From NCBI RefSeq assembly GCF_003334385.1, contig NZ_QOWN01000053.1: a stretch of 31,720 nucleotides of DNA; one strand, given 5' to 3'. Below the pieces are notes generated by a model. The model was given only the letters and a program-made list of their open reading frames with translations. It made no database searches and was not told the DNA's origin. This document shows positions 19,956 to 20,220 of the stretch, piece after piece (position 1 is the stretch's first letter; every line of letters starts with the position of its first letter). Both the position numbers and the translations under genes were made by a program. The DNA is from Escherichia coli (GTDB lineage: Bacteria > Pseudomonadota > Gammaproteobacteria > Enterobacterales > Enterobacteriaceae).

Positions 19956-20116
19956 AATGACGCCCTCGAGTGGTTTCTAAACTATCACCACCGTCAGGTT
20001 CCTAATCATCGGGTGGCGAGACGTACAGGGTTAGGAACTACCGGGAAACCAACCGGCGAGCTTTTCAGCTCCCCTATACGCCCCACCATAATTCAGATGT
20101 GCGTGTGCATACGACA

Positions 20117-20140
20117 ATAAAAAACACGCTCGCGGCGTGT
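20117..20140 (-). terminator. Minus-strand intrinsic terminator upstream of roi
   Basis: ACACGC-tcgcg-GCGTGT hairpin with an adjacent A-run on the plus strand (U-run on minus). Confidence 0.45.
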
Positions 20141-20220
20141 CTCTGTCGCGGTTTCTATCCGGGGTTCCTAATCCCGACGCCAGATTTTGCTGGCGTGCGA
20201 AGAATATAATCCCGGATATG

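Follow-up and report, generated by a model that had tools for sequence, protein, structure and literature searches.

The question raised by this locus is what recognizes a short word that occurs three times, twice in direct and once in inverted orientation, in one intergenic region of an Escherichia coli prophage. The region (contig NZ_QOWN01000053.1 of RefSeq assembly GCF_003334385.1; the whole stretch of DNA analyzed, 31,720 nucleotides [nt], is referred to as the window) separates a minus-strand antirepressor gene, ant, from a toxin–antitoxin-like gene pair on the plus strand. The first-pass annotation had proposed that the words are binding sites of a regulator that coordinates these two units. 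Our analysis indicates that they very probably serve as recognition words (the "a" words) in a c4 antisense-RNA switch of the P1 type that controls the antirepressor of a lambdoid prophage.

The repeat itself was confirmed. Both direct copies of the 11-mer GGTTCCTAATC are exact (19997–20007 and 20163–20173, plus strand), and no further copy is present in the window even at one mismatch. The inverted 8-bp copy is found at 20031–20038, and three copies of the 8-nt core (TTAGGAAC/GTTCCTAA) are present in the 31.7 kb, at 19998–20005 (minus strand), 20031–20038 (plus strand), and 20164–20171 (minus strand), all confined to one 175-bp stretch. A motif search, which had been suggested as a check and was run within the window, gave these three copies of the core against 0.64 expected, and 3 of 100 shuffled sequences reached three. 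Coincidence was considered as an explanation at this point: among 300 first-order Markov surrogates of the window, 77% contained a direct 11-mer pair less than 200 bp apart, whereas the direct pair together with an inverted 8-mer copy appeared in 4%. Taken alone, the repeat is borderline with respect to chance. It exceeds chance because of a second, independent triple and because of comparative data. The second word, GGTTTCTA, which was not listed in the first-pass annotation, was detected by a repeat finder at 19972–19979 and 20150–20157, and its complement lies in 20045–20051. Both triples keep their position and complementarity despite sequence change in 26 related modules, and a coincidental origin of the repeats is scarcely conceivable.

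Read as RNA, the first word is UUAGGAAC and its complement GUUCCUAA, and the second triple is GAAACC, GGUUUC, and GAAACCA. The first triple corresponds to the a1, a′, and a2 sites of a c4 system and the second to b1, b′, and b2, respectively. The order of the words is 5′-a-b-3′ in the targets and 5′-b′-a′-3′ in C4, which matches the requirement of antiparallel pairing. The pairing lengths in the window are 8 bp for both a′:a1 and a′:a2, 6–7 bp for b′:b1, and 7 bp for b′:b2, and the word-level duplexes have energies of about −10 kcal/mol each.

All three motif copies are located on a single minus-strand transcription unit that matches known RNA families, and the elements of this unit described below are on the minus strand. 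A sigma-70-type promoter of the module was found at 20203..20232 (TTGACG, 18-nt spacer, TATATT; 10 of 12 consensus matches). Its −35 and −10 hexamers vary little or not at all in 25 related modules including P1, and it corresponds to promoter P1c4/P51b of P1 and to PisrK of Gifsy-1. It is followed by a leader small RNA (sRNA) of the IsrK/c4-a1b1 type (20119..20196), which contains hairpin 1, hairpin 2 with a1 in its loop, a single-stranded b1, and a terminator. Rfam model isrK (RF01394) matched at full length (20196..20119, including the intrinsic terminator) with 69.2 bits against a gathering score of 50. Model c4-a1b1 (RF03163) also matched at full length (20209..20156; E = 5e-10), with 44.2 bits against a gathering score of 46.7. 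The leader fold (z = −2.87) places a1 in the 9-nt loop of the second of two hairpins with b1 immediately 3′ of it, which is the two-hairpin arrangement described for c4-a1b1 (Weinberg 2010, Additional file 1). The a1 word UUAGGAAC (20164..20171) is the core of the 11-mer copy at 20163–20173, and the b1 word GAAACC (20150..20155), just 3′ of leader hairpin 2, is contained in UAGAAACC (20157..20150); both are homologous to the annotated P1 sites of the same names. The minus-strand terminator reported earlier beside the words proved to be the one at the end of the isrK match (20119..20140), with a G+C-rich stem at 20140..20124 and then a run of six U residues to 20119. Terminator read-through has been shown experimentally for the Gifsy-1 homolog (PMC4825925). 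As the P1 leader also matches both models (see below), IsrK is in essence the c4-a1b1 leader plus a terminator.

The next element is a C4-type antisense RNA (20009..20093), which matched Rfam model C4 (RF01695) over the full length of the model with 66.0 bits against a gathering score of 45 (E = 7e-11). By homology to the 77-nt C4 of P1, the mature RNA is predicted to span 20087..20012; its termini, 5′ GGUGGGG and 3′ GCCACC, align with the annotated ends of P1 C4, and in the CCACC sequence four of the five bases are invariant in 25 modules and the A is nearly so. The C4 fold has a free energy of −43.3 kcal/mol, accounts for 82% of the ensemble, and has a z-score of −6.06, with none of 200 shuffled sequences equally stable. 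In this minimum-energy fold a long closing stem surrounds two hairpins, and both words are unpaired: b′ (UGGUUUC, 20045..20051) in the loop of hairpin 2, and a′ (GUUCCUAA, 20031..20038), which is the inverted 8-bp copy, in the single-stranded 3′ junction. Two features expected of a C4 RNA were observed: a′ and b′ are complementary to a1 and b1 upstream and to a2 and b2 downstream on one strand, and the RNA is located just upstream of an antirepressor gene, whose start codon is 54 nt past the C4 end.

The third a word, a2 (UUAGGAAC, 19998..20005), is the core of the 11-mer copy at 19997–20007 and starts 4 nt past the nhmmer-defined C4 end (20010) and 6 nt past the predicted mature 3′ end (20012). 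The b2 word GAAACCA (19971..19977) occupies −22 to −16 with respect to the start codon of ant, its end being 3 nt upstream of the Shine-Dalgarno (SD) sequence; SD and start codon were read from the sequence as GAGGG (19967..19963) and AUG (19955..19953), together 19953..19967. The gene itself (19284..19955, 223 amino acids) had been called Roi-like. This label is wrong, since the protein is an Ant-type antirepressor that matches phrog_377 "anti-repressor Ant" (2.4e-84) and the Pfam families ORF6N (1.7e-19) and P22_AR_C (2.9e-07); no NCBIfam model matched it. The real roi follows ant as the next gene in related phages.

An additional conserved element, GGUGGUGA (19985..19992), can pair, one G-U included, with UCGCCACC (20019..20012), which is the 3′ arm of the outer stem of C4, and the stem-arm pairs change together in relatives (TCACCACC/GGTGGTGA, TCGCCACC/GGTGGCGA, CCACCGC/GCGGTGG, and GCTACCACC/GGTGGTAGC). 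Pairing of GGUGGUGA with this arm may give a different hairpin that presents a2 in its loop and competes with the C4 fold.

To place these features in a comparative context, we analyzed the distribution of the module. Relatives of the 311-nt unit were detected in 270 phage records, mostly of Shiga toxin (Stx)-converting phages, and 736 of 5426 complete E. coli genomes carry a related copy, including O104:H4 outbreak strains; identity is 100% in three strains, and some E. coli genomes have up to four related places. The loci compared were 11 phage loci collected by DNA similarity, P1 and Gifsy-1 collected by accession, and 79 viral contigs collected by Ant similarity. An nhmmer C4 profile matched 79 of 92 sources (79 Ant-homologous loci, 12 earlier-fetched loci, and the window), and in those Ant loci where C4 precedes ant, about 54 nt separate its end from the start codon. 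The set contained 26 distinct modules, among which both the a word and the b word have at least 11 alleles. Their sources are lambdoid phages (Stx phages and others), P1, Gifsy-1, and phages of Klebsiella and Yersinia.

In spite of this diversity, complementarity is kept almost throughout. A perfect a′:a2 complement of at least 7 nt is present in all 26 modules and a′ is complementary to a1 in 25, whereas a complement of b′ (at least 6 nt, G-U allowed) is found in b1 of all 26 modules and in b2 of 25. In an alignment of 22 sequences (A3), 95.5% of the a1:a′ cells and 96.8% of the a′:a2 cells are paired, and changes on both sides were observed in five of seven pairs (35 cells). None of 500 shuffles reached these pairing values, and sliding the partner by 1–3 columns left 18–50% of cells paired. 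Most of the "unpaired" cells in A3 come from P1, whose a′ is one column off; A3 excludes the rows with 8-nt alleles, and a separate ungapped word analysis was used alongside it. Another alignment, A2, was unusable for pair counts, as MAFFT gapped the 7-nt alleles inconsistently against the 8-nt allele of the window. Duplexes of C4 with its target words are more stable by about 7 kcal/mol when the partners are cognate than when they are non-cognate (p ~ 1e-13). The allele pair of the window (a = UUAGGAAC, with 8 nt instead of 7; b = GAAACC) is found unchanged in at least nine IMG/VR contigs.

Some individual modules deserve separate mention. In locus L015 (922–1226), b′ and b1 are of the GGUUGAU/UCAACC type and b2 is the GAAACCA of the window, which leaves 5 bp, and in L062 (921–1225), a1 is UUGAGAC and a′ is GUUCCUAA. 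These two are natural recombinant modules with broken complementarity, and their switches might be leaky or uninducible. In addition, three phage contigs (L037, L038, and L039) each contain two ant modules 1.6 kb apart (C4 at 1063 and 2649) whose words are wholly different (GUGCUAA vs. ACGCCAA for a, GUUUCGA vs. GGUUUC for b). This difference fits the idea that the words keep adjacent switches independent.

The first-pass annotation suggested a different reader of the words, namely a protein (the antitoxin, the Ant/Roi protein, or IHF) for which the three DNA words are operators and which coregulates the toxin–antitoxin cassette and ant. Two direct copies and one inverted copy in a region of divergent promoters do look operator-like, and covariation of three copies is also expected for a shared protein site. 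On the other hand, the copies are not arranged round the promoters; they lie in transcribed RNA, downstream of a promoter, at the loop and junction positions of known structured RNA families, where they are unpaired. Four allele groups carry an A-to-G change in b1 relative to b2; such a b1 can still form a G-U pair with b′, but the DNA words are no longer identical. The words also assort independently of the Ant protein: Ant is 99–100% identical to that of the window in L015, L049, and L062, yet these have other b words, whereas in L051 and L052 the words of the window precede an Ant of only 68% identity. A protein reader would demand as many specificities as there are alleles (at least 11 × 11). 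No partner gene is conserved either, as the toxin–antitoxin neighbor is missing from most related modules; the upstream neighbors are differing toxin–antitoxin-like genes in the window, phi346, and PhiR12_3, and same-strand ninE/ninB in Stx2 II, PhiR12_5, and Xuzhou21. Furthermore, a perfect 16-bp palindrome, ATAACAAATTTGTTAT (20249–20264), just before the toxin-like open reading frame (ORF; start 20266), is a better operator candidate for the helix-turn-helix (HTH) antitoxin-like protein than the repeated words. Finally, as detailed below, compensatory mutations in Gifsy-1 fall on a1:a′. We therefore rejected the protein operator model, which we consider highly improbable, because of the position of the words, the lack of a conserved partner gene, the independent assortment from Ant, and the tolerance of G-U pairs. 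Thus, the suggestion that the words are recognition sites holds, whereas the proposed protein regulator is not supported; the regulator is most likely the C4 antisense RNA itself, in view of the single-stranded positions of the words in isrK, c4-a1b1, and C4. Coordination of two units by the words is not supported either, since the same promoter–leader–C4–ant module is also found behind same-strand ninE/ninB or beside other toxin–antitoxin genes.

How such a switch may work is suggested first by phage P1. The GenBank record of P1 shows the same order of elements: a1 (TTGACAG), b1, the 77-nt C4, a2 (TTGACAG), b2, and icd-ant. The sites of P1 are homologous to those of the window, with a1 in the second leader-hairpin loop, b′ in the loop of hairpin 2, and a′ in the C4 junction. 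Both loci consist of a promoter, a1, b1, a terminator-like hairpin, C4, a2, b2, and a gene, the output being an antirepressor, and in both a2 is located a few nucleotides past the C4 3′ end and b2 at the ribosome-binding region. The P1 leader scored 51.0 bits with c4-a1b1 and, more weakly, 35 bits with isrK. The two loci differ in their words (a, 8-nt UUAGGAAC in the window vs. UUGACAG in P1; b, GAAACC vs. GUUAGUG) and in the position of b2, which is directly before the SD of ant itself in the window but over the ribosome-binding site of icd, an upstream coupled ORF, in P1. They also differ in setting, as the module of the window is in the nin region of a lambdoid prophage whereas P1 is a plasmid prophage, and the ORF6N/P22_AR_C-type Ant of the window is unlike that of the P1 system. 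In the model for P1, C4 pairs with a2 and b2 round the ribosome-binding site so that antirepressor synthesis is blocked, and a1/b1 have been proposed as competitors for C4 that free a2/b2 (Weinberg et al. 2010, Additional file 1; PMC12197685).

Applied to the window, the following mechanism is favored, with C4-type occlusion of the ant ribosome-binding region and free leader RNA as the antagonist. A transcript that opens with the a1/b1 leader would be driven by the single minus-strand promoter (20232..20203). Most transcripts would end at the leader terminator (20140..20119) and release a free RNA of ~78 nt, and read-through past this terminator would be required for both C4 and the ant mRNA. 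C4 is probably excised from the precursor, its 5′ end being generated by RNase P as in P1. Pairing of a′ with a2 and of b′ with b2 would then exclude the ribosome, because b2 ends 3 nt before the SD sequence; Ant would not be made and the prophage repressor would stay active. The a1/b1 leader may compete for C4 or pair with a′/b′ intramolecularly. As the leader bears the same words and would compete for C4, a high level of free leader RNA is expected to turn ant on. This effect would be the one measured for IsrK in Gifsy-1 as well as the competition proposed for P1, and the switch may depend on Hfq.

The second well-studied relative is the isrK-orf45-anrP locus of Salmonella prophage Gifsy-1, which matches isrK, C4, and c4-a1b1 (48.1 bits) and has the same architecture and a closely related sequence, with corresponding promoter, leader terminator, and ant-type gene. 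Its words (a = UUGGCGU, b = UCACCG) differ from those of the window, and so do the neighbors, as Q is upstream in Gifsy-1 and a toxin–antitoxin-like pair is present in the window. When the published numbering was mapped on the sequence, IsrK residues G28 and G31 fell in a1 (U26–U32, UUGGCGU) and C162 and C159 in a′ (A158–A164, ACGCCAA). In structural terms, the mutations G28A and C162U compensate each other, and so do G31A and C159U (Hershko-Shalev et al. 2016, PMC4825925). IsrK supplied in trans increased anrP translation more than 100-fold (139-fold), and IsrK-G28A and IsrK-G31A were inactive (PMC4825925). Hfq binding of the short RNA and its activation of ant translation in trans are properties reported for Gifsy-1 only (PMC4825925).

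These data are the main basis of another explanation, in which control is intramolecular: a1/b1 would pair with a′/b′ in the read-through mRNA to give a silent fold, and free leader acting in trans would open the mRNA. C4 need not be a separate processed repressor in this case, and such control can coexist with the C4-type occlusion favored here. It is supported by the compensatory mutants, whose positions map to a1 and a′, by native-gel conformers, and by trans activation (PMC4825925), and the a′:a1 duplex in the window is at least as stable as a′:a2 (−11.7 vs. −10.1 kcal/mol). However, the Gifsy-1 model needs orf45-anrP coupling. The Gifsy-1 orf45 begins with a conserved AUG, located in the 5′ arm of the stem of C4, and has 45 codons, so that it runs from the C4 AUG to an overlap with the anrP start, whereas the ORF from the same AUG in the window (20008–20089, minus strand) has 27 codons, stops 51 nt before the ant AUG, and is uncoupled. 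In relatives, the equivalent ORF has 8, 14, 27, 31, 33, 35, 36, or 45 codons or runs into the downstream gene. A coding role of an orf45- or icd-like peptide across C4 was rejected at this locus, because neither ORF length nor frame is conserved; and no ORF of the icd kind known from P1 was found between b2 and ant in the window. Furthermore, a2/b2 are conserved at least as strictly as a1/b1, which a purely a1:a′ model leaves unexplained and the published Gifsy-1 model, without a processed C4 repressor or a2/b2 sites, does not include. In the predicted minimum-energy fold of a 252-nt window transcript, the hairpins of C4 and those of the leader also form separately. The Gifsy-1 double mutants are still derepressed 50- to 80-fold relative to wild type in the published table (PMC4825925), and this residual derepression is what would be expected from lost a′:a2 pairing. 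Purely intramolecular control thus appears possible but doubtful. C4-type occlusion is favored because a2/b2 are at least as conserved as a1/b1, because the orf45 equivalent is short, uncoupled, and variable in length (8–45 codons), and because the double mutants remain derepressed. The P1 and Gifsy-1 models are not exclusive: they share the same words and are mutually compatible.

Pairing of C4 might also act on transcription. In this case, P4 CI-like or Rho-mediated termination would end the transcript upstream of or inside ant. The authors of the Gifsy-1 study drew an analogy to P4 CI/seqA, and IsrK in trans raised anrP transcription 8-fold (PMC4825925). The P4 CI RNA is indeed similar in that a small RNA processed from the leader pairs with sites (seqA and seqC) up- and downstream in the same transcript. 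In P4, CI controls transcription termination of replication genes and not an antirepressor ribosome-binding site, and no sequence or Rfam tie to the module of the window was found. For P1, Biere, Citron, and Schuster reportedly found in 1992 that the translational block by C4 leads to a loss of ant transcription, which can be counted for such a mechanism. Nevertheless, the translational effect in Gifsy-1 (139-fold) is much larger than the transcriptional one, no terminator-like element was found between C4 and ant in the window, and b2 adjoins the SD sequence. Termination is therefore an unlikely explanation here. A last system for comparison is sar of P22, an antisense RNA that keeps the antirepressor gene ant off in a temperate enterobacterial phage. 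It is a true cis-antisense RNA, encoded on the strand opposite to ant and spanning the ribosome-binding site of this gene, whereas the regulator in the window is encoded upstream on the same strand and uses two short words.

Several observations weigh against C4-type occlusion as formulated above. C4 processing, binding, and expression at this locus are predictions from homology to P1 and Gifsy-1. The c4-a1b1 score is 2.5 bits under the Rfam curated threshold. The b2 word abuts the SD sequence without overlapping it, whereas in P1, L008, and L011 the b2 pairing extends into it, and in the window, which has no coupled ORF of the icd or orf45 type, pairing may lead to repression by an exact route unlike that of P1 or Gifsy-1. 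In the Gifsy-1 study, the data are explained by alternative folds of a long mRNA and not by a processed trans-acting C4, and the coexpressed downstream RNA STnc1160 failed to relieve IsrK toxicity (PMC4825925). Three-way covariation alone would also fit three protein-binding copies of a DNA word, one of them inverted. The energies reported are those of word-level duplexes and not of full-length interactions; RNAcofold of the full C4 with the target or leader gave no intermolecular pairs (interaction energy ddG = 0), because nested-structure algorithms cannot represent loop–loop kissing contacts.

For the plus-strand neighbor (20266–20902), described earlier as a toxin–antitoxin cassette, family support is weak: the first ORF matched RelE/ParE-type toxin models with 21.8 bits, below the cutoff of 62.85, and phrog_2523, which is of unknown function; the second ORF (20594–20902) encodes an XRE-type HTH protein; and NCBIfam gave weak, sub-threshold matches for the pair. 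A candidate plus-strand promoter was recognized by eye (TTGTCG at 20223–20228, 17-nt spacer, TATATA at 20246–20251). It overlaps the palindrome and stands back to back with the minus-strand sRNA promoter, the two −35 elements overlapping.

Other features were observed elsewhere in the window. Two tandem copies of the STnc100 sRNA family (Rfam RF02076) are located about 480 bp apart on the minus strand (15693–15902 and 16178–16371), with 129.9 and 138.7 bits against a gathering score of 47. At 10435–10620, at least five copies of a T-rich word round the palindrome TGCGCA (TTTTTTGCGCATTTTT and variants) were found within 190 bp. A tandem duplication of about 90 bp is present at 25014–25163, with exact blocks of 41 and 20 nt. 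Short periodic repeats similar to GCCTGCGGGACC with 45/54-nt spacing at 285–780 possibly represent a collagen-like repeat in a tail-fiber gene.

With regard to novelty, this kind of system is already established from the Rfam families C4, c4-a1b1, and isrK, from immI of P1, and from IsrK of Gifsy-1. The window adds a further member, which has a word pair of its own and lacks a coupling ORF such as icd or orf45. In the collection of papers that was searched, none explicitly equates IsrK/STnc1160 with c4-a1b1/C4, and a 2025 review still treats them as separate items; recognizing the words as c4-type a/b sites connects work on Salmonella IsrK with earlier work on P1 c4. Tentatively, but as a serious possibility, we suggest that IsrK and c4 are two descriptions of one widespread switch. 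Its leader may be an anti-antisense decoy for a processed C4 (STnc1160 in Salmonella), and its a × b words may form an RNA "address code" that insulates coresident prophages from each other. The allele of the window would then be a separate specificity class that arose when each of the three a sites gained a matching 1-nt insertion, and L015 and L062 would be leaky or uninducible.

Antirepressors can turn prophages on without the classical SOS route, and many lambdoid prophages, those with Shiga toxin among them, carry this module ahead of their ant genes. For the 12 best matches listed from RefSeq E. coli genomes, the sole annotation under the 311-nt module is "ORF6N domain-containing protein," and the isrK and C4 RNAs are unannotated there although they score above the Rfam thresholds. 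This RNA layer is easily missed, and short repeats within it are open to misreading as operators. The a/b words of c4-type switches provide a testable handle on which prophages can cross-talk.

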